Notes under the pieces: model-generated | What the model saw: only the letters and a program-made list of their open reading frames with translations | Told to the model about the DNA's origin: nothing | The model's database searches: none | Shown here: positions 1 to 25,300 of the stretch, in pieces | How positions within the stretch are numbered: the first letter of the stretch is position 1 | Layout: each line of letters opens with the position of its first letter | Position numbers and translations under genes: made by a program | NCBI GenBank assembly: GCA_964187785.1 | Contig: OZ076409.1 | Location: 72,232,001-72,296,000, forward strand | Reading direction: 5' to 3' | DNA length: 64,000 nt | Source: Amphiscolops sp. MND2022 | Taxonomy: Eukaryota

Positions 1-580
1 ATGCCGTTTAGCACATCTTTTTTATCTTAACTTGACATTGACTTATTTCGTTTTGAATGTGATGTTAGGATATATGAAGCATGTTAAAAGTTGAAGTTTT
101 GAGTCTTTATCTCATCGGAAAACCATTGAGATACAAGCAGTTTTGCTAAAAACGATTTTCATTGTAGGTTAGCAGAGTATTAGTACACTTTGATGTCATT
201 TGAGTATATTTTTCTTCTATATAATAACTGTTTTTATGTATTTATTCCAATTTATCTCATCTTTTAACATCAAGCAGTTGAGTACATTTCATCTCCCTTT
301 CGGGGGAGATGAGAATGTACTCGCTAAAAACCTAATGCTATGGCGCCAATGTTTGGATGGGAAGTTTTCTATGCTTTGAAAAAAGTTATTTTTAATTACT
401 TGATTTTTTAAAACAATAATTAACATGAAGTACATTACTTGCTCCTACTACTACCACCATACATCTCTAACGTCAACGCCCCCTGCTTGCATCAACGCCC
501 CATCGTCCGTGGGCATGCCGAGGCATGCCCTTCGACGACGTATGCCAAATGCCCAGTGCCACGCAGTCTTTTCCCGCTAG
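1..580 (+). repeat. Unit U0, family B, partial (3' part)
   Basis: Near-identical to 1284-1860; H2 hairpin at 280-322, core at 511-530, CTAG at 577. Confidence 0.9.
280..322 (+). other. Hairpin H2 (families B, E, F; representative)
   Basis: GAGTACATTTCATCTCCC-loop-GGGAGATGAGAATGTACTC, ~18-20-bp stem with one bulged base on the 3' arm. Confidence 0.75.
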
Positions 581-1860
581 GTGGCCGTGTCTTTTCGACG
601 TGCTTTTGCATTGAGGAGTGGGTAGGGCCCCGCGACGACCTAGAAGAATTGGATGCTCACCGAAACGTGCAGAATTCTACGAGATCTCATAGTTTGAGCC
701 ATACGATTTTTCTGAAATTTGGCATGTGGCCTGGAATTGGTGAGTAGGTAAAACGTGTAGAAGGTAATTTTTCCCAAATTCCACTGTGAGAGGAGATATG
801 GGCAAATAACGGACCCAAAAATGGCAAAAATGCACATTTTTCAACTTTGTCAGCCAATATCTCTTTTCCAGGTGCCCATAGCGTTCCGCACGTGGACGTC
901 AATATTGCTCAGCGCTGTTGGAGGAGTGCGTGGACAAATTTTGGTTTGAATCGGACTGAAACTTGACGAGAAATTAACGGTTTTTTGGGCGTTTCCGGGG
1001 TAAATTTTTTAACGGTCCAGCTTATCTTTGCCATTTTTTCGAAAATGTACATGCCTAAAGGCCTCCCCCTGGCCGAATTTACTCCCAGCAAACCCATTTG
1101 GCCCTAAATACGGAGTTTCAGCGTTCCAGCATTCCGGGGCGGAAAGTTGTGGGACTTGGAAAAATTTCAAAATTTTTTCAAAATTTTTTTTTCCCGTTTT
1201 CCGGGCCCCCAATGAAGGGGAACGACCCCCCAACCAGTATTTTGAGTGAATTCATGTGGAACGCCCATGTTTGGAGGAGAAAAATGCCGTTTAGCACATA
1301 TTTTTATCTTAACTTGACATTGACTTATGACGTTTTGAATGTGATGTTAGGATATATGAAGCATGTTAAAAGTTGAAGTTTTGAGTCTTTATCTCATCGG
1401 AAAACCATTGAGATACAAGCAGTTTTGCTAAAAACGATTTTCATTGTAGGTTAGCAGAGTATTAGTACACTTTGATGTCATTTGAGTATTTTTTTCTTCT
1501 ATATAATAACTGTTTTTATGTATTTATTCCAATTTATCTCATCTTTTAACATCAAGCAGTTGAGTACATTTCATCTCCCTTTCGGGGGAGATGAGAATGT
1601 ACTCGCTAAAAACCTAATGCTATGGCGCCAATGTTTGGATGGGAAGTTTTCTATGCTTTGAAAAAAGTTATTTTTAATTACTTGATTTTTTAAAACAATA
1701 ATTAACATGAAGTACATTACTTGCTCCTACTACTACCACCATACATCTCTAACGTCAACGCCCCCTGCTTGCATCAACGCCCACCGTCCGTGGGCATGCC
1801 GAGGCATGCCCTTCGACGACGTATGCCAAATGCCCAGTGCCACGCAGTCATTATCGCTAG
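581..1860 (+). repeat. Unit U1, family B (1280 bp)
   Basis: Starts GTG; B-family block CCTAAAGGCCTCCCC...GTTGTGGGACTT at 1054-1157; H2 hairpin at 1562-1604; core at 1792. Confidence 0.9.
1792..1821. promoter_or_regulatory. Conserved core palindrome / p53-family-like response element (representative of 29 copies)
   Basis: GGGCATGCCG|AGGCATGCCC matches 2 x RRRCWWGYYY with no spacer at 19/20 positions; followed by invariant TTCGACGACG. Function is inferred from motif match only. Confidence 0.5.
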
Positions 1861-1893
1861 GTGCGGGGGGGAAACCCCAACAAAATTTTTGGA

Positions 1894-1917
1894 GGATTCG
1901 GGTAGGGTCCTGAATCC
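1894..1917 (+). other. Left-end stem-loop with TAGGGT-type loop (representative)
   Basis: GGATTCGGG-TAGGGT-CCTGAATCC; stem sequence changes between families while pairing is kept. Confidence 0.75.
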
Positions 1918-3371
1918 GAGTTCAGTGCTGCCAGCTTTCGTTAAGAAAATTTGGATAGGATTCGGGATCTCGTGATCTAACCATAGGATTTTAAAGTTGG
2001 AGCGGCCCCCACCAGATTTTCCGAAAATTAGCGCCCCCCACCGGGTTCCATACCCCGGAAAATTTTTTTCTGGCCACACGGGCGACCGTTAGGGGGTCAT
2101 TTTAGGGGTAAAATTCATATTGGGCCACATAACTTTTTTTCTGTTGATTTAAAACTTTGGGACCCTGCTAAAAGTTTCTTGACCGTGTTGCAAGGGCTCC
2201 GGAGGTCCAAACCAAATTTTTCTAGCTTGAAGCTATCTCCAAGTACCCCCCCGCCCAAAACGTTATTTTTCCGGAAACGCAGGTTTTTGACCCGGAAGGA
2301 GTCGTCTGAGCGCGGGGTCGTTAGGTGATGTATTGGGGACGGCCTTGAGACGAAGTGGGGGACATGTAGTTTGTCAACCTCAGTTTACCCCCCAGACAGG
2401 AAATGACCGTTATATGAGCGGGAAAATTGCCCCCCTCCACGTTTTACCGCTATTTCCGGTGTGAAGGAGTGGGAGTAGCGCGTCGGGTGTTAAATAAAAA
2501 AAGTAGGTTTAGACAAGAAACTATCGGAAACATGTAGTTTGGGACCCCCTGGTCCAACCCGTTAGCGGGAAATGGGACTTCCGCCTCCTTTTTTTACTGC
2601 TAAAACCATAAAATGGGCATTGAGGGGTAAATATCTCGTGAACGCGTGGAGCAATCGTGTCCATCACTACTACAAGGTTTCATACCCATGATATGGTGCC
2701 TTCAGGGGGGCAAACAGATTTCCGCTATCTATCACCGTTACCGACTTGGCCCCCCAGCCTAACCGCTATGTGACCGGAAATGTCCATTTTTGAGCCCAAA
2801 GGGTCGGTCCCAGCCGGGGAACGTTAGGTAACTTATTGTAGTACTCAATGAGACGAGTTTGGGGATATAGTTTCAGTCACCCCCCGTTACCCCTTGGGAC
2901 CGGAAATGACCGTTATGTGGGTAAAATTGCAATTTTTATACTTTTTCAAGTGTATTTAGGTGCGGAAGGAGTGGTAATAGGTGCTTGGACACTATATGAG
3001 GTAAGGGAGGACGTGAGGCGAGCATTCGGAAATAACCGTTATGTTGACCCTAAAGTCCCCCTGGTACCGTAAACGACCGGAAATGGTCAAATTTTGTGTC
3101 TATTGGTTACAAATGTTTAGTATTTTGTAGATAAAAGTATCTATTAGGTGTTTCGACGGTCTGCAATAGTGAACATAGTCATGAAACCTTGTGGGGGGTA
3201 ACGGTATATAGCACCGGAAGTCCAAACCGTTGGAGACAGGATGAGTTTTTTGGTTTTAAAATGTCTTTCGGTGTTCCTTTGTCGACTATTAAGGACTATT
3301 TTTAAAAATTAAAGTTTTTCCATATAGTTTCAGAGACTCCGAAACCTCAACCAACATAACCGTTACATTTT

Positions 3372-3415
3372 GATAGCCTTTCAAGTTGGCCTGGTGTCAA
3401 CTTGGAAGCGCTATC
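3372..3415 (+). other. Hairpin H1 (families A, C, D; representative)
   Basis: GATAGCCTTTCAAGTTGGC-loop-GTCAACTTGGAAG(G/C)GCTATC, ~19-bp imperfect stem. Confidence 0.75.
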
Positions 3416-6400
3416 CTTCTGAAATCGTTAATCAAGAGTGTTTTTGGGTAGGTATATATTGCATTAGTACCAATTAGAGCTTCATCAACAGTGTATCAAC
3501 GACAAAAACTATGCCGTCATGATTCCGTTATTAGAATCATAGTGAGCAAATTGTTGAAAAAAATGGTTTTTTCCATACAAAATGTGTCCTAAATGCCAGG
3601 AAACCTATTTACCTAACAAATGGTATTAATTGGAATGTATGTAACAGATTTATAAAAGTTCAAATTGAATATTACATTTCATTATGGAAGCTGAAACGTC
3701 ATATTTTAGTTTAATTAACGTCAACGCCACACACTTTACATCAACGCACACCGTCTGTGGGCATGCCGAGGCATGCCCTTCGACGACGTATGACAAATCC
3801 ATATCAAACGACGCCCGTACATCCCGGGCTAGGTGCGGGGGGGTAACCCCAACAAATATATTGGAGGATTCGGGTAGGGTCCTGAATCCGATTTTAACTC
3901 TAATAGCTATCGATAGGAAATCTTGCAAAAATTTCGGGATCTCGTGATCTAACCATAGGATTTTAAAGTTGGAGCGGCCCCCACCAGATTTTCCAAAATT
4001 ATTCGCCCCCCACCGGGTTCCAGCGTGATTGAAATATTTTGTCGGGGTACACGGGCGACCGTTAGGGGTCATTTTGGGGGTAAAATTTATAAAAGTTCGC
4101 ATAACTTTTTTCCTGTTGGTTTAAAACTTTAGGACCCTGCTAAAAGTTTCTTGACCATGTTGCAGGGGCCCCGGAGGTCCAAACCAAATTTTTCTATCTT
4201 GAAGCTATCTCCAAGTACCCCCCCGCCCAAACCGTTATTTTTCCGGAAATGCCGGTTTTTGACCCGGAAGGAGTCGTCTGAGCGCGGGATCGTTAGGTGA
4301 TGTATTGGGGACGGCCTTGAGACGAAGCGGGGGATATATAGTTTGCCGACCCCAGTTTACCCCCCGGACCGGAAATGACCGTTATATGAGCGGGAAAAAT
4401 GCCCCCCTCCACGTTTTACCGCTATTTCCGGTGTGAAGGAGTGGGAGTAGCGCGTCGGGTGCCATACATCAAAAGTAGGTTTAGACAAGGACCTATCGGA
4501 AACATGTAGTTTGGGACCCCCTGGTCCAACCCGTTAGCGGGAAATGGGGCTTCCGCCTCCTTTTTTTACTGCTAAAACCGTAAAATGGGCATTGAGGGGT
4601 AAATATCTCGTGAACGCGTGGAGCAATCGTGTCCATCACTACTACAAGGTTTCATACCCATGATATGGTGCCTTCAGGGGGGCAAACAGATTTCCGCTAT
4701 CTATCACCGTTACCGACTTGGCCCCCCAGCCTAACCGCTATGTGACCGGAAATGTCACTTTTTGAGCCCAAAGGGTCGGTCCCAGCCGGGGAACGTTAGG
4801 TAACTTATTGTAGTACTCAATGAGACGAGTTGGGGGATATAGTTTCAGTCACCCCCCGTTACCCCTTGGGACCGGAAATGACCGTTATGTGGGTAAAATT
4901 GCAATTTTCATACTCTTTGAAGTGCATTTAGGTGCAGAAGGAGTGGTAATAGGTGCTTGGACACTATATGAGGTAAGGGAGGACGTGAGGCGAGCATTCG
5001 GGAATAACCGTTATGTTGACCCCAAAGTCCCCCTGGTACCGTAAACGACCGGAAATGGTCAAATTTTGTGTCTATTGGGTACAAATGTTTGGTATTTTAT
5101 GGATAAAAGTACCTGGAAGGTGTTTTAAAGGCCTCCAGAATTGAACATAGTCATGAAACCTTGTGGGGGGTAACGGTATATAGCACCGGAAGTCCAAACC
5201 GTTGGTCACAGAATAGGTTTTTTGGTTTCAAAATGTTTTTAGGCATAGTTTTGTGGGTTGAATCGTCATAATATCAACTAATACGGACTTTTTTTCGGAA
5301 ATAAATTTTTTTCACATTAGTTTCAGGGACCTCCAATGCTTCAGTCAACATAACCGTTACATTTTGATAGCCTTTCAAGTTGACCTGGTGTCAACTTGGA
5401 AGGGCTATCCTTCTAAAATTGTTAATCAAGAGTGTTTTTGGGTAGGTATATGTTGCATTAGTACCAATTAGAGCTTCATCAACAGTTTGCCAACGGCAAA
5501 AACGATGTCGTGATAATTCCGTTATAAAAATATTAGTTAACAAATTGTTTTCAAAGTTGATTTTTTCCATTAAAAATGTGTCCTAATGCCACCAAATTGA
5601 ATAAAATGGTATTGACTAAAACTAAATAACAATGAAAAAGAAGATCAACATTTTTATTAGGTCTCATTATGGAAGCTGAAACCTCACGTTTTAGTTTAAT
5701 TAACGTCAACGCCACATACTTTACATCAACGCCCACAGTCTGTGGGCATGCCGAGGCATGCCCTTCGACGACGTATACCAAACAACCTCCATATCTACAC
5801 CCACCCGCGGTAGCAGCTAGGTGCGGGGGGGTAACCCCAACTTTTTTCTTGGAGGAATCGGGTAGGGTCCTGATTCCGAGTTCAGTGCCGCCAGCTATCG
5901 TTAAAAACCTATACCTTTTAAACCCGATCTCGGGAACTAACCACGCCCCTTCTTTAATTTTTTGGCCCCCACTCACTTTTTGATAGTAGATTGCCCCCCA
6001 CTGGGTTCCAAGTTGGGCAAAAATGGAGATCATGGGTAACGGGGACCGTTAAGGGGTAACTCAGGGGGTAAAATTTATTTTTTGCGTCATATCTTTTCCC
6101 CCCGTGGATTTAGCGCTTCCGGTCAGCAGACAAAACCTCATGTACGTGATACGGGGCCTCCATAGGTCCAAACAAAATTTTTCTATCATGCACCGTTACG
6201 GACTTGGCCCCCCGGCCCAACCGTTATTTTACCGGAAATTGCACTTTTTGACCGGGAAGGAGTCGTCTGAGCACGGAGTCGTTTGGTAATGTTTTGTAGT
6301 GCATCTGGAGACGTGTTGGGGGACATGTAGTTTTCCGGCCCCAGTTTACCCCCCGGACGGGAAATGACCGTTATGTGAGTTTTAAAACTACCCCCCTTCA

Positions 6401-7807
6401 ATTTTCCCCGTTATTTCCGGTGTGAAGGAGTGGGAGTAGCGCGTCGGGTGCCATATATCAAAAGTAGGTTTAGACAAGGACCAACCGGAAACTTGTGGTT
6501 TGGGACCCCCTGACCCAACCCGTTAGCCGTTATAAGGGTGATCGCCTCCTTTTTTTACTCTCAAAACCGGAAAACGGGCATTGAGGGGTAAATATCTCGT
6601 GAACGCGTGGAGCAATCGTGTCCATCACTACTACAAGGTTTCATACCCATGATATGGTGCCTTCAGGGGGGCAAACAGATTACCGCTATCTATCACCGTT
6701 ACCGACTTGGCCCCCCAGCCTAACCGCTATGTGACCGGAAATTGCACTTTTTGAGCCCAAAGGGTCGATCCTAGCCGGGCAACGTTAGGTAACTTATTGT
6801 AGTACTCATTGAAACGAGTTGGGGGACATAGTTTCAGTCACCCCCCGTTACCTCTTAGGACCGGAAATGACCGTTATGAGGGTAAAATTGCAATTTTTAT
6901 ACATTTTGAAGGGCATTTAGGTGCGGAAGGAATGGTAATAGGTGCTTGGACACTATATGATGTAATGGAGGTCGTGAGGAGAGCATTCGGAAGTAACCGT
7001 TACGTTGACCCCAAAGTCCCCCTGGTACCGTTAACAACCGGAAATGGCCAAATTTTGTGTTTATAGGGTACAAATGTTTGGTATTTTATGGATAAAAGTA
7101 CCTGGAAGGTGTTTTAAAGGCCTCCAGAAGTGAACACAGTCATGAAACTTTGTGGGGGGTAACGGTATATAGCACCGGAAGTCCAAACCGTTGGTCACAG
7201 AATAGGTTTTTTGGTTTCAAAATGTCTTTAGGCGTAGTTTTGTGGGTTGAATCGTCATAATATCAACTAATACGGACTTTTTTCGGAAATAAAATTTTTT
7301 CACATTAGTTTCAGGGACCTCCAATGTTTCAGTCAACATAACCGTTACATTTTGATAGCCTTTCAAGTTGGCCTGGTGTCAACTTGGAAGGGCTATCCTT
7401 CTAAAATCGTTAATCAAGAGTGTTTTTGGATAGATATATGTTGCATTAGTTTCAATTAGAGCTTCATCAACAGTTTGCCAACGGCAAAACAATGTCGTGA
7501 TAATTCCGTTATATTAATTAACAAATTGATTCCAAAGTTGATTTTTTCCATTCGAAATGTGTCCTAATGCCACCAAATTGAATAAAATAATAAATGGTAT
7601 TGACTAAACCTAAATAACATTGAAAAAGAAGCTCAACATTTTTAATAGGTCTCATTATGGAAGCTGAAACCTCACGTTTTAACTTAATTAACGTCAACGC
7701 CACATACTTTACATCAACGCCCACCGTCTGTGGGCATGCCGAGGCATGCCCTTCGACGACGTATACCAATTACATATATATCTACACCCACCCGCGGTAG
7801 CAGCTAG

Positions 7808-10380
7808 GTGCCGGGATTTCTATTCGTTCGAGTATGTGGCGCGTGTGGGTAGGGCCCCTGGCGCGCTCTTTTATTTCGGGTACACCTACTCCAAATTCAC
7901 GATGTGATTTCGACGATCTCGTAAACTAGCCACACGATTTGGCTGAAATTTGGCACACGTACCCCCCTCGGCACGGTGAAGATGATTTCCTACTGACGTT
8001 TTTCCCGCTAAACATTTTTTGTTGACCAAAATAACGGTTTTTGGGGTAAAATTTTCAACTTTTTTCAAATTTTATCTTATATCTCGCTACAGGTACACGC
8101 TAGCGCTTCCAAACCTTGCTGACGAAAGTTTGCAAACTGTCTCAGGAATGCTGTGTGAAATTTTTAGCTCAATCGGACTTAAACTCGAGGAGATATAGCG
8201 TTTTTCCGGAGCGGGGGGGTTTCATTTTTCTAACGGTCCAGCTTATCTTTGCCATTTTTTCGAAAATGCACTCGCCTAAAGGCCTCCCCTGGCCGGTTTT
8301 ATTCCCAGCAAAACCATTTGGCCCTAAATACGGAGTTTCAGCGTTCCAGCATTCCCGGGCGAAAAGTTGTGGGACTTAGAAAATTTCAAAAATTTTCAAA
8401 AATTTTTTTTTCCGTTATTTGGGCCCCCAAAGTGGGGGAAAAGACCCCCCAACCAGTAAAGCAAGTGAATGCATGTGCAAAGCCCTTGTTTAGAGGAGAA
8501 AAATGCCGTTTAGAACGTCTTTTTATCTTGGCTCAACGTTGACTTATGACGTTTTGAAGGTGATGTTTGGAGGTGTAAATCACGTGAATAGTAAACGTTA
8601 TGAGTATTTATCTGATCTGAAAGCCATTGAGATGCAATATGGTTTGCTCAAATCGTAATTCATGGCAGTTTGGCAATCAATCAACACCCTTTGTTGTCGT
8701 TTGACATACTTTTTTGTTGTTATAATAAAAATTTTGTGTATTTGTTCATTTTTTTCTCATCAAATAACTTGAAACAGTTGAGTACATTCCATCCCCCCTT
8801 CCGGGGGAGATGAGAATGTACTCGCAAAAAGCAGCGAATTACGGCCCTTACCTTCCCGAGCTACGCAGTATAAGGATTACATATTGGTTCCGACATTTTC
8901 ATAGAGTTAAATCTTGGTAATCTGTCTGGATATGCAGAAAAATCAGCACGTGCCTTTTAATACCAAGTTGCTCACAACGACAATTATTTTATATCAACGC
9001 CCCCATATTTATCAACGCCCCCCGTCCGTGGGCATGCCGAGGCATGCCCTTCGACGACGTATACCAAGATATGCGTTAACGCGTTAGCCTAGGTGCCGGG
9101 ATTTCTATTCGATAAAGTATGTGGCGCGTGTGGGTAGGGTCCCTGGCGCGCTCTTGGGTATGGTGTTCACCAGCTAGGAAATAGGGGTCGATTTTTCGGG
9201 ATCTCCTAAACTAGCCACACGATTTGGCTGAAATTTGGCACACGTACTCCCCTCGGCATGGTGAAGATGATTTCCTACTAGCGTTTTGCTCGCAAAATTT
9301 TTTTTGTTGTCCAAAATAACGGTTTTTGGGGTAAAAATTTGAATTTTTTTTAAATTTTATCTTATATCTCGCCACGGGTTTACGCTAGCCGCGCCGCACC
9401 TTGCTAAGCTTATTTTGCAAACTGTCTCAGGAATGCTGTGTGAAATTTTCAGCTCAATCGGACTTAAACTCAGGGAGATATAGCGTTTTTCCGGAGCGGG
9501 GGGGTTTCATTTTTCTAACGGTCCAGCTTATCTTAGCCATTTTTTCGAAAATGTACTCGCCTAAAGACCTCCCCTGGCCGGTTTTATTCCCAGCAAAACC
9601 ATTTGGCCCTAAATACGGAGTTTCAGCGTTCCAGCATTCCCGGGCGAAAAGTTGTGGGACTTAGAAAAGTTCAAAAATTTTCAAAAAATTTTTTTTCCGT
9701 TTTCTGCCCTCCCCCCCTAGGGGAAAAGACCCCCCAACCAGTAATTTGAGTGAATTCATGTGGAAAGGCCATGTTTAGAGGAGAAAAATCCCGTTTAGAT
9801 CGTCTTTTTATCTTTATTCAACGTTGACTTATGACGTTTTGAAGGTGATGTTTGGAGGTGTGAAGCACGTGAAAAGTAAACGTTATGAGTATTTATCTGA
9901 TCTGAAAGCCATTGAGATGCAACCTGTTTTGCTCAAAACGTAATTCATATCAGTTTGGTAGTCAATCAACACCCTTTGTTGTCATTTGACATCTTTTTTT
10001 GTTGATATAAGAAAAAATTTCGTGTATTTATTCATTTTTTTCTCATCAAATAACTTGAAACAGTTGAGTACATTCCATCCCCCCTTCACGGGGGAGATGA
10101 GAATGTACTCGCAAAAAGCCCCGAACTACGGCCCTTACCTTCCTGAGCTACGCAGTATAAAGATTGCATATTGGTTCCGACATTTTGATAGAGTTATATC
10201 TTGGTAATCTGTCTGGGTATGCAGAAAAACAAGCACGTGCTTTTTTATACCAAGTTGCTCACAACGACATTTATTTTATATCAACGCCCCCATATTTATC
10301 AACGCCCACCGTCCGTGGGCATGCCGAGGCATGCCCTTCGACGACGCGCACCAAAATATTCCCCGAGCGCGTTAGCCTAG
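7808..10380 (+). repeat. Two family-B units: U5 7808-9092 (1285 bp), U6 9093-10380 (1288 bp)
   Basis: Similar to each other; both start GTGCCGGGATTTCTATTC; share the B block and H2 hairpin with U1; cores at 9030, 10317. Confidence 0.9.
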
Positions 10381-13300
10381 GTGCGGGGGGGTAACCCCAA
10401 CAAATATATTGGAGGATTCGGGTAGGGTCCTGAATCCGATTTTAACTCTAATAGCTATCGATAGGAAATCTTGCAAAAATTTCGGGATCTCGTGATCTAA
10501 CCATAGGATTTTAAAGTTGGAGCGGCCCCCACCAGATTTTCCGAAAATTAGCGCCCCCCACCGGGTTCCAGCGTGATTGAAATATTTTGACGGGGTACAC
10601 GGGCGACCGTTAGGGGTCATTTTGTGGGTAAAATTTATAAAAGTTCGCATAACTTTTTTCCTGTTGGTTTAAAACTTTAGGACCCTGCTAAAAGTTTCTT
10701 GACCGTATTGCAAGGGCTCCGGAGGTCCAAACCAAATTTTTCTATCTTGAAGCTATCTCCAAGTACCCCCCCGCTCAAACCGTTATTTTTCCGGAAACGC
10801 AGGTTTTTGACCCGGAAGGAGTCGTCTGAGCGCGGGGTCATTAGGTGATGTATTGGGGACAGCCTTGAGACGAAGTGGGGGACATGTAGTTTGCCAACCT
10901 CAGTTTACCCCCCGGACGGGAAATGACCGTTATATGAGCGGCAAAAATGTCCCCCTCCACGTTTTACCGCTATTTCCGGTGTGATGGAGTGGGAGTAGCG
11001 CGTCGGGTGCCATATATCAAAAGTAGGTTTAGACAAGGATCTATCGGAAACATGTGGTTTGGGACCCCCTGGACCAACCCGTTAGCAGGAAATGGGGCTT
11101 CCGGCCCGTTTTTTTACGGTTAAAAACGGAAAATGGGCATTGAGGGGTAAATATCTCGTGAACGCGTGGAGCTACGGTGTCCTTCACTACTACAAGGTTT
11201 CATACCCATGATATGGTGCGTTCAGGGGGGCAAACAGATTTCCGCTATCTATCACCGTTACGGACTTGGCCCCCCAGCCTAACCGCTAAGTGACCGGAAA
11301 TGTCATATTTTGAGCCCAAAGGGTCGGTCCCAGCCAGGGAACGTTAGGTAACTTATTGTAGTACTCATTGAGACGAGTTGGGGAACATAGTTTCAGTCAC
11401 CCCTCGTTACCCCTTGGGACCAGAAATGACCGTTATGTGAGTAAATTTGCCGTTTTTGTCCTACTTGAAGGGCATTTAGATGCGGAATGAGTGGTAATAG
11501 GTGCTTGGACACTATATGAAGGAAGGGAGGATATGAGGCGAGCATTCACAAATAACCGTTATGTTGACCCTAAAGTCCCCCTGGTACCGTAAACGACCGG
11601 AAATGGTCAAATTTTCTGTTTATAGGGTACAAATGTTTGGTATTTTGTAGATAAAAGTATCTATTAGGTGTTTCGACGGTCTGCAGTAGTGAACATAGTC
11701 ATGAAACCTTGTGGGGGGTAACGGTATATAGCACCGGAAGTCCAAACCGTTGGAGACAGGATAGGTTTTTTGGTTTTAAAATGTCTTTCGGCGTACTTTT
11801 GTCGACTATTAAGGACTACTTTTAAAAATTAAAGTTTTTCCATATAGTTTTAGAGACTCCGAAACCTCAACCAACATAACCGTTACCTCATGATAGCCTT
11901 TCAAGTTGGCCTGGTGTCAACTTGGAAGGGCTATCCTTCAAAAATCGTCAATCAAGTATGTTTTTGGGTATGTTTGTATCATTTTAGAATCAAATAGAGC
12001 TTCAAGAAAAGTTTGCCAACGACAAAAACTATGTCGTGATGATTCCGTTATTAGAATAATAGTTAGCAAATTGTTGAGAAAATTGATTTTTTCCATATAA
12101 AATGTGTCCTAAATGCCAGGAAACTTATTTAACTAACAAATGGTATTGATTGGAATGTATGTAACAGAGTTATAAAAGTTCAAATTGATTATTACGTTTC
12201 ATTATGGAAGCTGAAACGTAATATTTTAGTTTAATTATCGTCAACGCCACACACTTTACATCAACGCCCACCGTCTGTGGGCATGCCGAGGCATGCCCTT
12301 CGACGACGTATGGCAAATCCCTTCTAACGACGCCCGTACATCCCGGGCTAGGTGCGGGGGGGAAACCCCATCCCTTATCTTGGAGGATTCGGGTAGGGTC
12401 CTGAATCCGAGTTCAGTGCCGCCAGCTCTCAGTAGAAATCTGGGAAATTTTTTGCGATCTCGTGATCTAACCATAGGATTTTAAAGTTGGAGCGGCCCCC
12501 ACCAGATTTTCCAAAGTTATTCGCCCCCCACCGGGTTCCAGCGTGATTGAAATATTCTGACGGGGTACACGGGCGACCGTTAGGGGTCATTTTGGGGGTA
12601 AAATTTATATCCGGTCGCATAACTTTTTTCCTGTTGGTTTAAAACTTTGGGACCCTGCTAAAAGTTTCTTGACCGTGTTGCAGGGGCCCCGGAGGTCCAA
12701 ACCAAATTTTTCTATCTTGAAGCTATCTCCAAGTACCCCCCCGCCCAAAACGTTATTTTTCCGGAAACGCAGGTTTTTGACCCGGAAGGAGTCGTCGGAG
12801 CGCGGGGTCGTTAGGTGATGTATTGGGGACGGCCTTGAGACGAAGCGGGGGACATGTAGTTTGCCGACCCCAGTTTACCCCCCGGACGGGAAATGACCGT
12901 TATTTGAGCGGGAAAAATGCCCCCCTCCACGTTTTACCGCTATTTCCGGTGTGAAGGAGTGGGAGTAGCGCGTCGGGTGCCATATATCAAAAGTAGGTTT
13001 CGACAAGGATCTATCGGAAACATGTGGTTTGGGACCCCCTGGACCAACCCGTTAGCAGGAAATGGGGCTTCCGGCCCGTTTTTTTACGGTTAAAAACGGA
13101 AAATGGGCATTGAGGGGTAAATATCTCGTGAACGCGTGGAGCTACGGTGTCCATCACTACTACAAGGTTTCATACCCATGATATGGTGCCTTCAGGGGGG
13201 CAAACAGATTTCCGCTATCTATCACCGTTACCGACTTGGCCCCCCAGCCTAACCGCTATGTGACCGGAAATGTCACTTTTTGAGCCCAAAGGGTCGGTCC

Positions 13301-16300
13301 CACCCGGGGAACGTTAGGTAACTTATTGTAGTACTCAATGAGACGAGTTGGGGGACATAGTTTCAGTCACCCCCCGTTACCCCTTGGGACCGGAAATGAC
13401 CGTTATGTGAGTAAATTTGCCATTTTTGTCCTATTTGAAGGGCATTTAGACGCGGAAGGAGTGGTAACAGGTGCTTGGACACTATATGAGGTAAGGGAGG
13501 ACGTGAGGCGAGCATTCGGACATAACCGTTATGTTGACCCTAAAGTCCCCCTGGTACCGTAAACGACCGGAAATGGTCAAATTTTGTATTTTTAGGGTAC
13601 AAATGTTTGGTATTTTATGGAATAAAGTACATGGAAGGTGTTTCAAAGGCATCCAGAAATGAACATAGTCATGAAACCTTGAGGGGGGTAACGGTATATA
13701 ACACCGGAAGTCCAAGCCGTTGGACACAGTATAGGTTTTTGGGTTTTAAAATGCTTATGAACGTACATTTGTGGGTTGAATTGTTCTAATATTGACTATT
13801 TTCGATATTTTTTGACATTAAAGGTTTTTCCAATAGTTTCAGGGACCTCCAAAGCTTCAATCAACATAACCTTTACATTATGATAGCCTTTCAAGTTGGC
13901 CTGGTGTCAACTTGGAAGGGCTATCCTTCACAAATCGTATATCAAGTGTGTTTTTGAGTAGGTTTTTATCACTTTAGTATCAATTAGAGCTTAATCATTA
14001 GTTTGCCAACGACAAAAACCATGTCGTGATGATTCCGTTAGTAGAAGAATAGTTAACAACTTGTTGACAAAGTTGATTTTTTGCATTTAAAATGTTTCCT
14101 AAATGCCAGGAAAACGATTTACGTTATAAATGGTACTGATTGACCCAAATAACAGTTAAAAAAAGTTAAACATTATTTTTTCGTTTCATTATAGAAGCTG
14201 AAACCTCACGTTTTAACTTAATTAACGTCAACGCCACATACTTTACATCAACGCCCACCGTCTGTGGGCATGCCGAGGCATGCCCTTCGACGACGTATAC
14301 CAAAATCCAATATATCTACACCCACCCGCGGTAGCAGCTAGGTGCGGGGGGGTAACCCCAACAAATATATTGGAGGATTCGGGTAGGGTCCTGAATCCGA
14401 TTTTAACTCTAATAGCTATCGATAGGAAATCTTGCAAAAATTTCGGGATCTCGTGATCTAACCATAGGATTTTAAAGTTGGAGCGGCCCCCACCAGATTT
14501 TCCGAAAATTAGCGCCCCCCACCGGGTTCCAGCGTGATTGAAATATTTTGTCGGGGTACACGGGCGACCGTTAGGGGTCATTTTGGGGGTAAAATTTATA
14601 AAAGTTCGCATAACTTTTTTCCTGTTGGTTTAAAACTTTAGGACCCTGCTAAAAGTTTCTTGACCATGTTGCAGGGGCCCCGGAGGTCCAAACCAAATTT
14701 TTCTATCTTGAAGCTATCTCCAAGTACCCCCCCGCCCAAACCGTTATTTTTCCGGAAATGCCGGTTTTTGACCCGGAAGGAGTCGTCTGAGCGCGGGATC
14801 GTTAGGTGATGTTTTGGGGACGGCCTCGAGACGAAGCGGGGGATATATAGTTTGCCGACCCCAGTTTACCCCCCGCACGGGAAATGACCGTTATATGAGC
14901 GGGAAAAATGCCCCCCTCCACGTTTTACCGCTATTTCCGGTGTGAAGGAGTGGGAGTAGCTCGTCGGGTGTTATATAACAAAAGTAGGTTTAGACAAGGA
15001 CCTATCGTAAACATGTAGTTTGGGACCCCCTGGTCCAACCCGTTAGCGGGAAATGGGGCTTCCGCCTCCTTTTTTTACTGCTAAAACCGTAAAATGGGCA
15101 TTGAGGGGTAATTATCTCGTGAACGCGTGGAGCAATCGTGTCCATCACTACTACAAGGTTTCATAACCATGATATGGTGCCTTCAGGGGGGCCAACAGAT
15201 TTCCGCTATCTATCACCGTTACCGACTTGGCCCCCCAGCCTAACCGCTATGTGACCGGAAATGTCACTTTTTGAGCCCAAAGGGTCGGTCCCAGCCGGGG
15301 AACGTTAGGTAACTTATTGTAGTACTCAATGAGACGAGTTGGGGGATATAGTTTCAGTCACCCCCCGTTACCCCTTGGGACCGGAAATGACCGTTATGTG
15401 GGTAAAATCGCAATTTTTATACTTTTTCAAGTGTATTTAGGTGCGGAAGGCGTGGTAATAGGTGCTTTGACACTATATGATGATAGGGAGGACGTGAGGC
15501 GAGCATTCGGAAATAACCGTTATGTTGACCCTAAAGTCCCCCTGGTACCGTAAACGACCGGAAATGGTCAAATTTTGTGTCAATTGGGTACAAATGTTTG
15601 GTATTTTGTAAATAAAAGTATCTATTAGGTGTTTCGACGGTCTGCATTAGTGAACATAGTCATGAAACCTTGTGGGGGGTAACGGTATATAGCACCGGAA
15701 GTCCAAACCGTTGGAGACAGGATAGGTTTTTTGGTTTTAAAATGTCTTTCGGCGTACTTTTGTCGACTATTAAGGACTACTTTTAAAAATTAAAGTTTTT
15801 CCATATAGTTTTAGAGACTCCGAAACCTCAACCAACATAACCGTTACCTCATGATAGCCTTTCAAGTTGGCCTGGTGTCAACTTGGAAGGGCTATCCTTC
15901 TAAAATCGTTAATCAAGAGTGTTTTTGGGTAGGTATAAATTGCATTAGTACCAATTAGAGCTTCATCAACAGTGTACCAACGACAAAAACTATGTCGTGA
16001 TGATTCCCTTATCAGAATAATAGTTAGCGAATTGTTAAAAAAACTGATTTTTTCCATTTAAAATGTGTCCTAAATGCCAGGAAACCTATTTACTTAAAAA
16101 ATGGTATTAATTGGAATGTATGTAACAGAGTTATAAAAGTTCAAATTGATTATTACGTTTCATTATGGAAGCTGAAACGTAATATTTTAGTTTAATTAAC
16201 GTCAACGCCACATACTTTACATCAACGCCCACCGTCTGTGGGCATGCCGAGGCATGCCCTTCGACGACGTATACCAAATACATACCTAACGACGCCCGTA

Positions 16301-19300
16301 CATCCCGGGCTAGGTGCGGGGGGGAAACCCCATCCCTTATCTTGGAGGATTCGGGTAGGGTCCTGAATCCGAGTTCAGTGCCGCCAGCTCTCAGTAGAAA
16401 TCTGGGCATTTTTTTGCGATCTCGTGATCTAACCATAGGATTTTAAAGTTGGAGCGGCCCCCACCAGATTTTCCAAAGTTATTCGCCCCCCACCGGGTTC
16501 CAGCGTGATTGAAATATTTTGTCGGGGTACACGGGCGACCGTTAGGGGTCATTTTAGGGGTAAAATTTATATAATGTCGCATAACTTTTTTCCTGTTGGA
16601 TTAAAACTTTGGGACCCTGCTAAAAGTTTCTTGACCGTGTTGCGGTGGCTCCGGAGGTCCAAACCAAATTTTTCTATCTTGAAGCTATCTCCAAGTACCC
16701 CCCCGCCCAAACCGTTATTTTTCCGGAAACGCCGGTTTTTGACCCGGAAGGAGTCGTCTGAGCGCGGGGTCGTTAGGGGATGTTTTGGGGACGGCCTCGA
16801 GACGAAGCGGGGGATATATAGTTTGCCGACCCCAGTTTACCCCCCGCACGGGAAATGACCGTTATATGAGCGGGAAAAATGCCCCCCTCCACGTTTTACC
16901 GCTATTTCCGGTGTGAAGGGGTGGGAGTAGCGCGTCGGGTGTTATATATCAAAAGTAGGTTTAGACAAGGATCTATCGGAAACATGTGGTTTGGGACCCC
17001 CTGGACCAACCCGTTAGCAGGAAATGGGGCTTCCGCCTCCTTTTTTTACTGCTAAAACCGTAAAATGGGCATTGAGGGGTAAATATCTCGTGAACGCGTG
17101 GAGCAATCGTGTCCATCACTACTACAAGGTTTCATACCCATGATATGGTGCCTTCAGGGGGGCAAACAGATTTCCGCTATCTATCACCGTTACCGACTTG
17201 GCCCCCCAGCCTAACCGCTATGTGACCGGAAATGTCACTTTTTGAGCCCAAAGGGTCGGTCCCAGCCGGGGAACGTTAGGTAACTTATTGTAGTACTCAA
17301 TGAGACGAGTTGGGGGATATAGTTTCAGTCACCCCCCGTTACCCCTTAAGACCGGAAATGACCGTTATGTGAGTAAATTTGCCGTTTTTGTCCTATTTGA
17401 AGGGCATTTAGATGCGGAAGGAGTGGTAATAGGTGCTTGGACACTATATGAGGTAAGGGAGGATATGAGGCGAGCATTCGGAAATAACCGTTATGTTGAC
17501 CCCAAAGTCCCCCTGGTACCGTAAACGACCGGAAATGGTCAAATTTTCTGTTTATAGGGTACAAATGTTTGGTATTTTGTAGATAAAAGTATCTATTAGG
17601 TGTTTCAAAGGCCTCCAGAAGTGAACATCGTCATGAAACCTTGTGGGGGGTAACGGTATATAACACCGGAAGTCCAAACCGTTGGTCACAGAATAGGTTT
17701 TTTGGTTTCAAAATGTCTTTAGGCGTAGTTTTATGGGTTGAATCGTCATAATATCAACTATTACGGACATTTTTCGGAAAAAAAATTTTTTCACATTAGT
17801 TTCAGAGACCTCCAATGCTTCAGTCAACATAACCGTTACATTTTGATAGCCTTTCAAGTTGGCCTGGCGTCAACTTGGAAGGGCTATCCTTCTAAAATCG
17901 TTAATCAAGAGTGTTTTTGGGTAGGTATATGTTGCATTAGTACCAATTAGAGCTTCATCAACAGTTTGCCAACGGCAAAAACGATGTCGTGATAATTCCG
18001 TTATAAGAATATTAATTAAAAAATTGTTTACAAAGTTGATTTTTTTCATTTAAAATGTGTCCTAATGCCACCAAATTGAATAAAATAATAAATGGTATTG
18101 ACTAAAACTAAATAACATTGAAAAAGAAGATCAACATTTTTATTAGGTCTCATTATGGAAGCTGAAACCTCACGTTTTAACTTGATTAACGTCAACGCCA
18201 CATACTTTACATCAACGCCCACCGTCTGTGGGCATGCCGAGGCATGCCCTTCGACGACGTATACCAAACAACCTCCATATCTACACCCGATTGCGGTAGC
18301 AGCTAGGTGCGGGGGGGTAACCCCTACAAAGATATTGGAGGATTCGGGTAGGGTCCTGAATCCGATTTTAACTCTAATAGCTATCGATAGGAAATCGTGC
18401 AAAAATTTCGGGATCTCGTGATCTAACCATAGGATTTTAAAGTTGGAGCGGCCCCCACCAGATTTTCCAAAGTTATTCGCCCCCCACCGGGTTCCAGCGT
18501 GATTGAAATATTTTGACGGGGTACACGGGCGACCGTTAGGGGTCATTTTGGGGGTAAAATTTATATCCGGTCGCATAACTTTTTTCCTGTTGGATTAAAA
18601 CTTTGGGACCCTGCTAAAAGTTTCTTGACCGTGTTGCGGGGGCTCCGGAGGTCCAAACCAAATTTTTCTATCTTGAAGCTATCTCCAAGTACCCCCCCGC
18701 CCAAACCGTTATTTTTCCGGAAACGCAGGTTTTTGACCCGGAAGGAGTCGTCTGAGCGCGGGGTCGTTAGGTGATGTATTGGGGACGGCCTTGAGACGAA
18801 GCGGGGGATATATAGTTTGCCGACCCCAGTTCACCCCCCGGACGGGAAATGACCGTTATATGAGCGGGAAAAATGCCCCCCTCCACGTTTTACCGCTATT
18901 TCCGGTGTGAAGGAGTGGGAGTAGCGCTTCGGGAGCCATATATCAAAAATAAGTTTAGACAAGGACCTATCGGAAACATGTAGTTTGGGACCCCCTGGAC
19001 CAACCCGTTAGCGGGAAATGGGGCTTCCGCCTCCTTTTTTTACTGCTAAAACCGTAAAATGGGCATTGAGGGGTAAATATCTCGTGAACGCGTGGAGCAA
19101 TCGTGTCCATCACTACTACAAGGTTTCATACCCATGATATGGTGCCTTCAGGGGGGCAAACAGATTTCCGCTATCTATCACCGTTACCGACTTGGCCCCC
19201 CAGCCTAACCGCTATGTGACCGGAAATGTCACTTTTTGGGCCCAAAGGGTCGGTCCCAGCCGGGGAACGGTAGGTAACTTATTGTAGTACTCAATGAGAC

Positions 19301-22300
19301 GAGATGGGGGACATAGTTTCAGTCACCCCCCGTTACCCCTTGGGACCGGAAATGACCGTTATGAGGGTAAATTTGCATTTTTTATACTCTTTGAAGTGCA
19401 TTTTTGTGCGGGAGGAGTGGTAATAGGTGCTTGGACACTATATGAGGTAAGGGAGGACGTGAGGCGAACATTCGGAAATAACCGTTATGTTGACCCTAAA
19501 GTACCCCTGGTACCGTAAACGACCGGAAATGGTCAAATTTTGCGTCTATTGGGTACAAATGTTTGGTATTTTGTAGATAAAAGTATCTATTAGGTGTTTC
19601 GACGGTCTGCAGTAGTGAACGTAGTCATGAAACCTTGTGGGGGGTAACGGTATATAGCACCGGAAGTCCAAACCGTTGGACACAGGATATGTTTTTGGTT
19701 TGAAAAGGTCTTTCGGTGTACTTTTGTCGACTATTATGGACTATGTTTAAAAATTACAGTTTTTCCATATAGTTTCAGAGACTCCGAAACCTCAATCAAC
19801 ATAACCGTTACCTTTCGATAGCCTTTCAAGTTGGCCTGGTGTCAACTTGGAAGCGCTATCCTTCTAAAATCGTTATTCAAGAGTGTTTTTGGGTAGGTAT
19901 ATTTTGCATTAGTACCAATTAGAGCTTCATCAACAGTGTATCAACGACAAAAACTAAGCCGTCATGATTCCGTTATTAGAATAATAGTGAGCTAATTGTT
20001 GACAAAAATAATTTTTTCCATACAAAATGTGTCCTAAATGCCAGGAAACCTATTTACCTAACAAATGGTATTGATTGGAATGTATGTAACAGATTTATAA
20101 AAATTCAAATTGAATATTACGTTTCATTATGGAAGCTGAAACGTCATATTTCAGTTTAATTAACGTCCACGCCACATACTTTACATCAACGCCCACCGTC
20201 TGTGGGCATGCCGAGGCATGCCCTTCGACGACGTATACCAAATACATACCCAAACGACGCCCGTACATGCCGGGCTAGGTGCGGGGGGGTAACCCCAACA
20301 AATATATTGGAGGATTCGGGTAGGGTCCTGAATCCGATCTTAGTGCCGCCAGCTATCGTTAAAAACCTATACCTTTTAAACCCGATCTCGGGAACTAACC
20401 ACGCCCCTTCTTTAATTTTTTGGCCCCCACTCACTTTTTGAGAGTAGATCGCCCCCCATTGGGTTCGATGTTGGGCAAAAATGGAGATCATGGGTAACGG
20501 GGACCGTTAAGGGGTAACTCAGGGGGTAAAATTTTTTTTTTGCGTCATATCTTTTCCCCCCGTGGATTTAGCGCTTCCGGTCAGCAGACAAAACCTCATG
20601 TACGTGATACGGGGCCTCCATAGGTCCAAACAAAATTTTTCTATCATGCACCGTTACGGACTTGCCCCCCCGGCCCAACCGTTATTTTACCGGAAATTGC
20701 CTTTTTTGACAGGGAAGGAGTCGTCTGAGCACGGAGTCGTTTGGTAATGTTTTGTAGTGCATCTGGAGATGTGTTGGGGGACGTGTAGTTTGCCGACCCC
20801 AGTTTACCCCTCGGACGGGAAATGACCGTTATGTGAGTTTTAAAAATGCCCCCCTTCAATTTTCCCCGCAATTTCCGGTGTGAAGGAGTGGGAGTAGCGT
20901 GTCGGGTACCATATATCTAAAGTACGTTTAGACAAGGACCAACCGGAAACATGTGGTTTCGGACCCCCTGACCCAACCCGTTAGCCGCTATTAGGGTGAT
21001 CGCCTCCTTTTTTTGCTGTTAAAACCGGAAAACGGGCATTGAGGGGTAAATATCTCGTGAACGCGTGGAGCAATCGTGTCCATCACTACTACAAGGTTTC
21101 ATACCCATGATATGGTGCCTTCAGGGGGGCAAACAGATTACCGCTATCTATCACCGTTACCGACTTGGCCCCCCAGCCTAACCGCTATGTGACCGGAAAT
21201 TGCACTTTTTGAGCCCAAAGGGTCGATCCTAGCCGGGCAACGTTAGGTAACATATTGTAGTACTCATTGAGACGAGTTGGGGGATCTAGTTTCAGTCACC
21301 CCCCGTTACCCCTTGAGACCGGAAATGACCGTTATGTGAGTAGAATTGCAATTTTTATACCTTTTGAAGGGCATTTAGGTGCTGAAGGAATGGTAATAGG
21401 TGCTTGGACACTATATGATGTAATGGAGGTCGTGAGGAGAGCATTCGGAAGTAACCGTTACGTTGACCCCAAAGTCCCCCTGGTACCGTTAAAAACCGGA
21501 AATGGCCAAATTTTGTGTTTATAGGGTACAAATGTTTGGTATTTTATGGATAAAAGTACCTGGAAGGTGTTTTAAAGGCCTCCAGAAGTGAACATAGTCA
21601 TGAAACTATGTGGGGGGTAACGGTATATAGCACCGGAAGTCCAAACCGTTAGTTACAGAATAGGTTTTTTGGTTTCAAAATGTCTTTAGGCGTAGTTTTG
21701 TGGGTTGAATCGTCATAATATCAACTAATACGGACTTTTTTCGGAAATAAAATTTTTTCACATTAGTTTCAGGGACCTCCAATGTTTCAGTCAACATAAC
21801 CGTTACATTTTGATAGCCTTTCAAGTTGGCCTGGTGTCAACTTGGAAGGGCTATCCTTCTAAAATCATTAATCAAGAGTGTATTTGGGTAGGTATATATT
21901 GCATTAGTACCAATTAGAGCTTCATCAACAGTTTGCCAACGGAAAAAACGATGTCGTGATAATTCCGTTATAAGAATATTAAAGAACAAATTGTTTCCAA
22001 AGTTGATTTTTTCCATTCGAAATGTGTCCTAATGCCACCAAATTGAATAAAATAAAAAATGGTATTGACTAAAACTAAATAACATTGAAAAAGAAGCTCA
22101 ACATTTTTAATAGGTCTCATTATGGAACCTGAAACCTCACGTTTTAACTTAATTAACGTCAACGCCACATACTTTACATCAACGTCCGCCGTCTGTGGGC
22201 ATGCCGAGGCATGCCCTTCGACGACGTATACCAATTACATATATATCTACACCCACCCGCGGTAGCAGCTAGGTGCGGGGGGGAAACCCCATCCTTTATC

Positions 22301-25300
22301 TTGGAGGATTCGGGTAGGGTCCTGAATCCGATTTTAGTTCGCCCAGCTCTCAGTAGAAATCTGGGAAATTTTTTGCGATCTCGTGATCTAACCATAGGAT
22401 TTTAAAGTTGGAGCGGCCCCCACCAGATTTTCCAAAGTTATTCGCCCCCCACCGGGTTCCAGCGTGATTGAAATATTTTGTCGGGGTACACGGGCGACCG
22501 TTAGGGGTCATTTTAGGGGTAAAATTCATATTGGGCCACATAACTTTTTTTCTGTTGATTTAAAACTTTAGGACCCTGCTAAAAGTTTCTTGACCATGTT
22601 GCAGGGGCCCCGGAGGTCCAAACCAAATTTTTCTATCTTGAAGCTATCTCCAAGTACCCCCCCGCCCAAACCGTTATTTTTCCGGAAACGCAGGTTTTTG
22701 ACCCGGAAGGAGTCGTCTGAGCGCGGGGTCGTTAGGTGATGTATTGGGGACGGCGTTGAGACGAAGCGGGGGATTTATAGTTTGCCGACCCCAGTTTACC
22801 CCCCGGACGGGAAATGACCGTTATATGAGCGGGAAAAATGCCCCCTCCACGTTTTACCGCTATTTCCGGTGTGAAGGAGTGGGAGTAGCGCGTCGGGTGT
22901 TATATAACAAAAGTAGGTTTAGACAAGGACCTATCGGAAACATGTAGTTTGGGACCCCCTGGACCAACCCGTTAGCGGGAAATGGGGCTTCCGCCTCCTT
23001 TTTTTACTGCTAAAACCGTAAAATGGGCATTGAGGGGTAAATATCTCGTGAACGCGTGGAGCAATCGTGTCCATCACTACTACAAGGTTTCATACCCATG
23101 ATATGGTGCCTTCAGGGGGGCAAACAGATTTCCGCTATCTATCACCGTTACCGACTTGGCCCCCCAGCCTAACCGCTATGTGACCGGAAATGTCACTTTT
23201 TGAGCCCAAAGGGTCGGTCCCAGCCGGGGAACGTTAGGTACCTTATTGAAGTACTCATTGAGACGAGTTGGGGGATACAGTTTCAGTCACCCCCCGTTAC
23301 CCCTTGGGACCGGAAATGACCGTTATGTGGGTAAAATTGCAATTTTTGTGCTTTTTCGAGGGCATTTAGGTGCGGAAGGAGTGGTAATAGGTGCTTGGAC
23401 ACTATATGATGATAGGGAGGAAGTGAGGCGAGCATTCAAAAATAACCGTTATGTTGACCCCAAAGTCCCCCTGGTACCGGAAGTGACCCGTAACGGTCAA
23501 ATTTTGTGTTTTTAGGGTACAAATGATTAGAATTTTTTGGAAAAAAGTACCTGGTCGGTGTTTCAACGGCTTGCAGTAGTGAACATAGTCATGAAACCTT
23601 GTGGGGGGTAACGGTATATAGCACCGGAAGTCCAAACCGTTGGAGACAGGATAGGTATTTTGGTTTTAAATGCCTATAAGCGTACTTTTGTGGGTTGAAT
23701 TGTTTCAATATCGACTAATTTGGATATTTTTTTGACATTGAAGGTTTTTTCAATAGTTTCAGGGACCTCCAATGCTTCAATCAATATAACCGTTACCTTA
23801 TGATAGCCTTTCAAGTTGGCCTGGTGTCAACTTGGAAGGGCTATCCTTCGAAAATCGTAATTCAAGTGTGTTTTTGAGTACGTTTTTATTACTTTAATAT
23901 CAATTAGAGCCTAATCATTAGTTTGCCAACGACAAAAACTATGACGTGATGATACCGTTAGTAGAAGAATAGTTAACAATTTGTTGACAAAATTGATTTT
24001 TTGCATTTTAAATGTTTCCTAAATGCCAGGAAAACAATTTATCTAATGAATGGTACTGATTGAACCCAAGTATCATTTGAAAAAAAGTTAAACATTGTTT
24101 TTTCGTTTCATTATGGAAGCTGAAACCTCACGTTTTAGGTCACTTAACGTCAACGCCACATACTTTACATCAACGCCCACCGTCTGTGGGCATGCCGAGG
24201 CATGCCCTTCGACGACGTATACCAATTACATATATATCTACACCCACCCGCGGTAGCAGCTAGGTGCGGGGGGGTAACCCCAACAAATATATTGGAGGAT
24301 TCGGGTAGGGTCCTGAATCCGATTTTAACTCTAATAGCTATCGATAGGAAATCTTGCAAAAATTTCGGGATCTCGTGATCTAACCATAGGATTTTAAAGT
24401 TGGAGCGGCCCCCACCAGATTTTCCGAAAATTAGCGCCCCCCACCGGGTTCCAGCGTGATTGAAATATTTTGACGGGGTACACGGGCGACCGTTAGGGGT
24501 CATTTTGGGGGTAAAATTTATATCCGGTCGCATAACTTTTTTTTCTGTTGATTTAAAACTTTGGAACCCTGCTAAAAGTTTCTTGACCGTGTTGCAGGGG
24601 CCCCGAAGGTCCAAACCAAATTTTTCTATCTTGAAGCTATCTCCAAGTACCCCCCCGCTCAAACCGTTATTTTTCCGGAAACGCAGGTTTTTGACCCGGA
24701 AGGAGTCGTCTGAGCGCGGGGTCGTTAGGTGATGTATTGGGGACGGCCTTGAGACGAAGTGGGGGACAAGTAGTTTGCCAACCTCAATTTACCCCCCGGA
24801 CGGGAAATGACCGTTATATGAGCGTGAAAAATGCCCCCCTCCACGTTTTACCGCTATTTCCGGTGTGAAGGAGTGGGAGTAGCGCGTCGGGTGTTATATA
24901 ACAAAAGTAGGTTTAGACAAGGACCTATCGGAAACATGTAGTTTGGGACCCCCTGGACCAACCCGTTAGCGGGAAATGGGGCTTCCGCCTCCTTTTTTTA
25001 GTGCTAAAACCGTAAAATGGGCATTGAGGGGTAAATATCTCGTGAACGCGTGGAGCAATCGTGTCCATCACTACTACAAGGTTTCATACCCATGATATGG
25101 TGCCTTCAGGGGGGCAAACAGATTTCCGCTATCTATCACCGTTACCGACTTGGCCCCCCAGCCTAACCGCTATGTGACCGGAAATGTCACTTTTTGAGCC
25201 CAAAGGGTCGGTCCCAGCCGGGGAACGTCAGGTAACTTATTGTAGTACTCAATGAGACGAGTTGGGGGATATAGTTTCAGTCACCCCCCCTTACCCCTTG

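Follow-up and report, generated by a model that had tools for sequence, protein, structure and literature searches.

The closest described systems are the Helitron-like elements (HLEs) of eukaryotes and the IS91 family. In the accounts cited, Helraiser (HLE1) encodes a RepHel protein with Y2 and Pif1 domains and an RPA-like accessory gene, ends in a 3' hairpin and CTAG, inserts with no target duplication and transposes its plus strand via a circle (PMC4778049, PMC5876387). Its plus strand is the only one transposed (PMC5876387), its LTS is essential, its 3' hairpin is the terminator and its junction circles are cleaved (PMC4778049, PMC5876387). HLE1 inserts at A^T and HLE2 at T^T (PMC11417382, PMC3627910). 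Hairpins with compensatory changes have been described at both ends of HLE2 (Helitron2/Helentron, FoHeli) (PMC3627910), and the HELIANO report mentions one GIY-YIG-bearing HLE2 in Sphagnum and at least four unclassified HLE clusters (PMC11417382). A Paramecium Helitron clade, described as more divergent than HLE1 is from HLE2, targets telomeric repeats and shows a target-like CCAA right end, an absolute orientation bias and compensatory changes in the right-end stem (PMC13085455). The IS91 family (IS91, IS801, IS1294) combines an HUH enzyme with a CTTG/GTTC target adjoining ori, in which T is fixed at position 2, no duplication, a target-like cleavage site at ter and subterminal palindromes at ori (PMC13181058). 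Tandem arrays of Helitrons are also on record (PMC5876387, PMC5148889). Neither a 5' hairpin with compensatory changes nor a tandem array of Helitrons is new in general; in the literature searched, which mostly excluded subscription papers and Repbase, no end structure, target or array of the type reported here was described.

The window, that is the whole stretch of 64,000 nucleotides analysed here (1..64000, + strand), is a head-to-tail mixed array of 29 non-coding units of several families of 1.3-4.8 kb (unit sizes 1.3, 1.4, 2.0, 2.2 and 4.8 kb). These families have little in common beyond their ends, and no long coding frames were found in the window units. The window falls inside a cluster at about C1:70.46-76.46 Mb. 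Sequence comparison with autonomous elements identified U1 (581..1860, +) and U2 (1861..3832, +; 1,972 nt) as non-autonomous units: the first 741 nt of U1 are 97.8% identical to an autonomous element at 75.977 Mb of the same contig (G000:C1), and over its first 1,059 nt U2 matches, at 88.5% identity, the 5' end of an autonomous RepHel element from contig G000:C1041. The two units meet at CTAG^GTG, with a cut position ambiguous by one G, CTAG (1857..1860, +) being both the 3' end of U1 and the target tetranucleotide ahead of U2. The right terminal sequence of U2 (3750..3832, +; z -4.35) is composed of a conserved palindrome, GGGCATGCC-GA-GGCATGCCC (3759-3778), a variable small hairpin and the terminal CTAG; the right-end 30-mer has 4,066 exact copies genome-wide versus 0 in the control. 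Internally, the 4.8-kb units (33568-43102, 45084-49856 and 60553-64000) contain a tandem repeat of ~336 bp, and the U2-type units and their autonomous partner contain repeats of ~500 bp. Unit lengths group at about 1.05, 1.28, 1.39, 1.98 and 4.76-4.9 kb across unrelated families.

Near its left end, U2 carries a conserved 5' subterminal hairpin (1894..1917, +), whose stem 1894-1902/1909-1917 closes the loop TAGGGT (1903-1908). The segment 1890-1921 folds at -6.6 kcal/mol (z -2.9), a value equalled by 0/200 shuffles, and the - strand gives -4.5. The five stems quoted in a preliminary description of this DNA are all present at the positions it gave: that of U2, a U2-type stem with a double compensatory change (GGAATCGGG/CCTGATTCC; 5854..5877, +), and the left-end hairpins of U18 type (32218..32239, +; loop GAGGGT), U17/U20 type (38371..38398, +) and U26 type (54439..54460, +; loop TAGGGG). 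The spacing of 42-50 nt that it reported also holds, the loop start being measured from the C of CTAG. Among 49 contexts, 44 had one of the 5854-type and 1894-type stems and 5 had the other, with no single-sided mismatch. The loop motif GGGDAGGGNCCY occurs 25 times in the window, always on the + strand, versus 0.10 expected, and three further window units have TT/TC loops, so that the loop is present in 28/29 units. The exception is U28, in which the loop had been noted as not evident; this unit instead folds an unrelated long T/G-rich hairpin containing G:T pairs at the same position (58399..58437, +), without the NAGGGN loop. A relative of U28 (58374-60556), found at L196:9-2162, is 79% identical overall and has the same first ~100 nt; both are array members despite having no such loop. 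A small first hairpin, GGGG-GAAA-CCCC (1867..1878, +), exists in only some left-end types, and the first 30 nt of left ends fold with a mean z of only -0.54 over 41 types.

Across the 1.07-Gb genome, the left-end pattern had 4,759 matches versus 3 in controls. Left ends were also defined by the preceding right end, which yielded 249 junctions, of which 145 were distinct, falling into 45 types below 80% similarity. The loop is kept in 41/45 types; those set aside are U28, two variants with an AGACGG loop and a case of insertion within a right end. The loop begins at nt 40-48 in 38/41 types, and in the abundant U17 family T or C stands in place of its A. Covariation was assessed in an ungapped 41-row alignment with a named 10-pair stem. 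Pairing reached 72.0% of cells compared to 58.5±1.8 after shuffling, two-sided changes 74 compared to 42±4.5, and the covariation score 0.364 compared to 0.178, a value reached by 0/500 shuffles, slid controls giving at most 0.202. The stem thus covaries across the 41 left-end types. Pair 4 alone takes five pair types across 36/41 rows. The left-end types are related, which inflates such alignment counts, and these are not independent events; on a RepHel tree of 20 elements, however, the type of pair 3 changes three times and that of pair 4 six times. The stem had been called freely covarying, which it is not: the two inner pairs are invariant G:C (41/41 types) and the third is G:Y in 39/41. 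After pair 4-5 the helix of many types is interrupted by a bulge or internal loop, the predicted closing pair is not formed in 9/41 and z is above 0 in 4/41.

The recurrent mismatch had been described as G:T on the + strand only. With the loop forced, 25 G:T pairs form on the + strand and none on the -, and the arms hold T and A in similar numbers (76 and 74). The difference in energy between + and - strands is -1.30, versus -0.52 for shuffles (p 6e-5). The raw number of G:T pairs (35) is not above that of arms shuffled between types (37.0±3.8), and the wobble at pair 3 is partly due to the invariant G; it is the G:T versus A:C asymmetry alone, and not the raw G:T count, that is informative on the strand. 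Covariation and strand-asymmetric wobble both support the proposal that the structure is selected on the + single strand. Judged from these sequences, the left-end hairpin is a real, selected structure at the 5' end of a variant of Helitron-like element. Complementarity between the loop and the 5' end is at chance level (p 0.33).

On sequence grounds, the window units are non-coding derivatives of autonomous elements of 12-27 kb, which also begin with this hairpin and code for RepHel (HUH-Y2 and Pif1), for a GIY-YIG domain and for a protein predicted to be RPA-like. One array, at C1:23.99-24.01 Mb, includes a unit of 13,675 bp that has the same hairpin at its start and CTAG at its end, and encodes a 2,373-aa protein matching Pfam Helitron_like_N, PIF1 and, weakly, GIY-YIG; Pfam searches of the three ORFs of one autonomous unit detected no recombinase. 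The Rep query gave 125 genome matches, whose identity ranges from 30 to 100% and many of which lie in open frames >2,100 aa; the 34 located at C1:70.5-76.5 Mb are all on the strand of the window. The hairpin, which lies on the sense strand of RepHel, was found at the upstream CTWG^GT start of 21/22 fetched RepHel elements, and the right end of the window in 14/20 of those with a visible end. The distance from left end to RepHel ORF is 1-12 kb; where it reaches 6-12 kb, as in several elements, the assignment of the left end is uncertain. The GIY-YIG domain is present in 17/17 elements tested and in 77/87 long database relatives, the domain content of distant relatives having been read from precomputed hits and a purpose-built GIY-YIG profile. 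The downstream ORF is predicted to form an RPA/CST-like OB-fold (model pLDDT 70, low TM-scores). The single-sequence fold of the third ORF, with a pLDDT of 32, was uninformative, and sequence searches of Atlas and PDB gave no match to it. Extra ORFs of autonomous units (L030:3362-4027, L026:7467-8201 and 9321-9998) resemble by eye fragments of SGNH hydrolases and OTU proteases, with no Pfam match. Taken together, the element carrying the hairpin is, on its encoded domains and ends, very probably Helitron-like.

These elements run GTG...CT(A/G/T)G, with a right end that is CTAG or CTGG and rarely CTTG, and with hairpins at both ends. The GTG start is found in 29/29 window units and in 248/249 tallied junctions, a tally that required GT. 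Copies of host repeats revealed the empty target. In a first repeat, the uninterrupted copies have the empty site CTTG^GT in 6/7 cases, the seventh having ATTG; these sites agree with an absence of duplication and are ambiguous taken alone. In a second repeat, the empty site is CTTG^AT in 9/9 copies and the filled site is CTTG|GTG...CTAG|AT, and therefore nothing was duplicated. The same observations, CTTG on the left and CTAG on the right with nine empty sites out of nine, rule out a four-base target duplication. The +2 position was T in 20/21 right ends with no abutting unit, and left flanks located from the right end were in most instances CTAG or CTTG, one CTCG, one GTCC and one decayed flank being the exceptions. 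Insertion takes place after ..TG or ..AG and before DT. Twelve of 20 dispersed right ends had no library-recognised left end within 10 kb, and at least two of these were later found by motif. The right end of a solo copy (L009:4850-4872) finishes TCACTCTCTTG, closer to the target flank than to the usual end of its family, for which target-templated repair is possible. No asymmetric terminal inverted repeats were detected in ten units, the longest exact match being at most 7 nt in 10/10.

For one type of right end, GTG comes next in 2,003 of 2,086 copies (96% abut another start), and the six-letter target is expected, by a rough estimate, to outnumber the ~5,000 junctions by a factor of millions. 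Divergence is higher in right ends that no start follows than in internal ones (p 2e-5). The ~6-Mb cluster, whose continuity was sampled and not read through (units at 71.9, 72.7 and 73.1 Mb; first listed match at 70.459 Mb), is nearly all on one strand, with one inverted copy, and no units were seen in the flanking stretches sampled at 69.0-70.3 or 76.5-77.2 Mb. The RepHel matches in this cluster (C1:70.46-76.46 Mb) number at least 34, are all on the same strand and come from lineages only 30-45% identical; the cluster could possibly be a centromeric, heterochromatic or piRNA-like domain. Other clusters lie at C2:102-103.9 Mb and C3:2.5-3.6 Mb. Several right-end families of unrelated sequence are stacked in the same arrays, the left hairpin being common to them. 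An avoidance of similar neighbours seen in the window was gone in 136 units (p 0.36). Among these, same-family neighbours are 87.8% alike versus 88.8% for non-neighbours, and they cluster (46 versus 20 expected). For 37 pairs of units at ≥98% identity, the neighbour was near-identical in 0/62 comparisons, and the members of several near-identical pairs lie in arrays tens of Mb apart. Since near-identical copies have no common neighbours, concatemers and block duplication do not explain the order. The arrays thus appear to be built copy by copy, by single copies inserted at junctions. A few odd junctions, L224 (C1:72444504), L226, L083, L172 and L251, lie inside resident left ends or 16-17 nt before them, and one odd junction near a resident left end is on the opposite strand.

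The reading that we prefer is that the hairpin is probably a signal that RepHel reads on the displaced + strand and with which copying begins at CTAG^GTG. On the model of Helraiser and IS91, RepHel would nick the + strand after CTWG and stay linked to the 5' G; Pif1 would unwind, the + strand would be displaced, the right-end palindrome would stop the process at CTWG, and the product would be a circle joined at CTAG^GTG. Located on the displaced strand, with a constant spacing from the nick, the hairpin would be suited to recognition by the enzyme. A further role as a landing signal favouring existing junctions as insertion sites is conceivable from the sequences, with a likelihood that we place a little short of even. 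The circle junction, the chromosomal junction and the target would all be CTWG^DT, and each insertion would therefore regenerate the site between both hairpins. The chromosomal junction, identical in sequence to that of the circle and with a hairpin on either side, would for this reason be the best nicking substrate; its free CTAG-3'OH could accept the next incoming copy and arrays would grow unit by unit in one orientation.

The alternative that survives best, although unlikely, is that the hairpin is an initiation signal only, the arrays arising from attraction by the right-end palindrome or by local chromatin, or from the purging of dispersed copies. It is in line with the greater conservation of the right-end core sequence (the 4,066 exact 30-mers), with the divergence of right ends that no start follows, which purging or older age would explain, and with the clustering of same-family neighbours. 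By contrast, the stacking of unrelated right-end families that have the left hairpin in common argues against it, as do the odd inserts 16-17 nt upstream of resident left ends (L172, L251) and the junctions that fall less than 100 nt into a left end (L083, L224, L226), which are few and some of which may be deletions. These odd junctions lean towards the left over the right hairpin as the attractor; internal junctions cannot discriminate between them. That the hairpin works at the RNA level, the transposon transcript using it as a 5' leader or promoter-proximal element, is very improbable. The G:U bias would fit equally well and the hairpin is on the RepHel sense strand, but its position is tied to the DNA end and not to an ORF 1-12 kb away, it is kept in thousands of non-coding derivatives, and an Rfam search of window positions 1-10,500 gave no match at the gathering score, with two weak snoRNA hits below threshold; a role in RNA is not needed to explain the data. 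Still less credible is a double-stranded protein-binding palindrome, cruciform or G-quadruplex in place of a single-strand hairpin. In its favour are the conserved GG-NAGGG-N-CC, the richness of left ends in G and the unwinding of G-quadruplexes by Pif1 helicases; against this stand the strand-asymmetric wobble and a stem whose sequence varies while its pairing is kept, and only 9/41 types have four G3 runs, which rules out a G-quadruplex as a general explanation. Finally, a satellite, rolling-circle concatemer or assembly artefact with a passenger hairpin, or cassettes of integron or IS200/IS605 type, can hardly account for the arrays: the tandem organisation fits, but neighbours are no more alike than non-neighbours, near-identical copies reside in different arrays, contigs of one public run cross the junction with different upstream ends, and the partner enzyme is RepHel.

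If RepHel uses the hairpin as proposed, these elements would provide a rolling-circle integrase found naturally in a eukaryote, which is site-specific and leaves no duplication. Dozens of its ORFs are intact and its junction, with two hairpins, is well defined, which would make 5'-end recognition and target choice by Helitrons testable. Megabase tandem arrays would then arise via repeated targeted insertion and not via unequal crossing-over. Search tools relying on TC/CTRR or ATIR rules are likely to miss such ends.

To place the RepHel, trees of 36 and 18 rows were built, near-duplicates and references without both domains being left out. The Rep query matched 624 clusters at E ≤0.001 and 117 at ≤1e-30. 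References were the few in-genome elements classed by Pfam (HLE1, n=3; HLE2, n=8): canonical HLE1 and DUF6570-bearing HLE2 elements are found in the same genome (L155-L170, L174), and those on the small contigs C1762 and C1384 may derive from another organism, one having an odd residue make-up. A long branch with 100/100 support separates the 28 clade members from the rest, with 18.2% identity to HLE1 and 18.6% to HLE2, HLE1 and HLE2 being 23.7% identical. The motif-2 spacer is 7-11 aa without RG in 100/100 matched clade sequences, and 5 aa in 13 references. With these few references, the AU test rejected neither nesting within HLE2, among the DUF6570-bearing elements (p 0.42), nor HLE2 monophyly (p 0.33). 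DUF6570 is absent from the RepHel scanned and from 74/74 relatives, and present in 8/8 HLE2 references. Some relatives have an OTU domain, and no relative was confirmed in viral and prokaryotic collections. Among seven metagenome loci checked, most of which may lack their ends, one (L177) has the hairpin motif upstream of the ORF: GCGTGGG-CAGGGC-CCCGCGC stands near the contig start, after CTGG, with the loop kept and a 7-bp stem including a T:G pair (chance about 0.03 over 7 contigs), and the whole 5' end prefers another fold. The unclassified HELIANO clusters may include this RepHel and GIY-YIG lineage. More broadly, and slightly more tentatively than for the landing signal itself, the elements might represent a fourth, widespread Helitron-like lineage (RepHel plus GIY-YIG, >100 clusters at 50% identity) combining IS91-type targeting, a hairpin landing signal and single-orientation, integron-like arrays of up to ~6 Mb as a self-made safe harbour.

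Among the analogues first suggested for the hairpin, an HUH origin is retained, an HUH RepHel being encoded in the same arrays. IS200/IS605 ends are disfavoured by a partner that is a Y2 RepHel with Pif1 and not a Y1 TnpA, and by the lack of guide-type pairing. The attC core is RYYYAAC/GTTRRRY; the junction CTWG^GTG is without it and one unit scanned has no tyrosine recombinase, which disfavours attC sites. With HLE1 the elements have in common a RepHel with Y2 and Pif1 domains, a 3' hairpin followed by a CTRR-type end, the absence of duplication and an RPA-like gene, but they start with 5' GTG and not TC, target CTWG^DT and not A^T, and have a conserved 5' hairpin, a C-terminal GIY-YIG domain and a motif-2 spacer of 7-9 aa without RG; in the transposase tree, with three in-genome HLE1 references, they are not in the HLE1 clade. 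Hairpins at both ends, long ORFs, the OTU domain of some relatives and GIY-YIG (in one Sphagnum HLE2) recall HLE2, from which they differ by the absence of ATIRs, of DUF6570, of a 5' T end and of T^T/T^C insertion, and by a hairpin located 30-60 nt inside and not at the terminus; the one RepHel scanned had no Pfam match to AP endonuclease. They resemble the Paramecium clade in a right end that is a target-like tetranucleotide, in being a divergent lineage and in their orientation bias, and differ from it in their ends and targets (telomeric repeats there). Comparison by eye with Paramecium Hel01, as presented in its source, further indicates a canonical EFQxRG spacing, contrary to the clade described here, and an ORF ending soon after the helicase with no room for GIY-YIG (PMC13085455). 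Likeness to the IS91 family extends to the HUH enzyme, the tetranucleotide target, the lack of duplication, the target-like right end and the subterminal hairpins, the comparison of the enzymes covering their common HUH motifs. IS91-family elements are bacterial, small and without helicase, and to our knowledge no megabase mixed arrays are known for them. The elements reported here would link eukaryotic Helitrons mechanistically to bacterial IS91.
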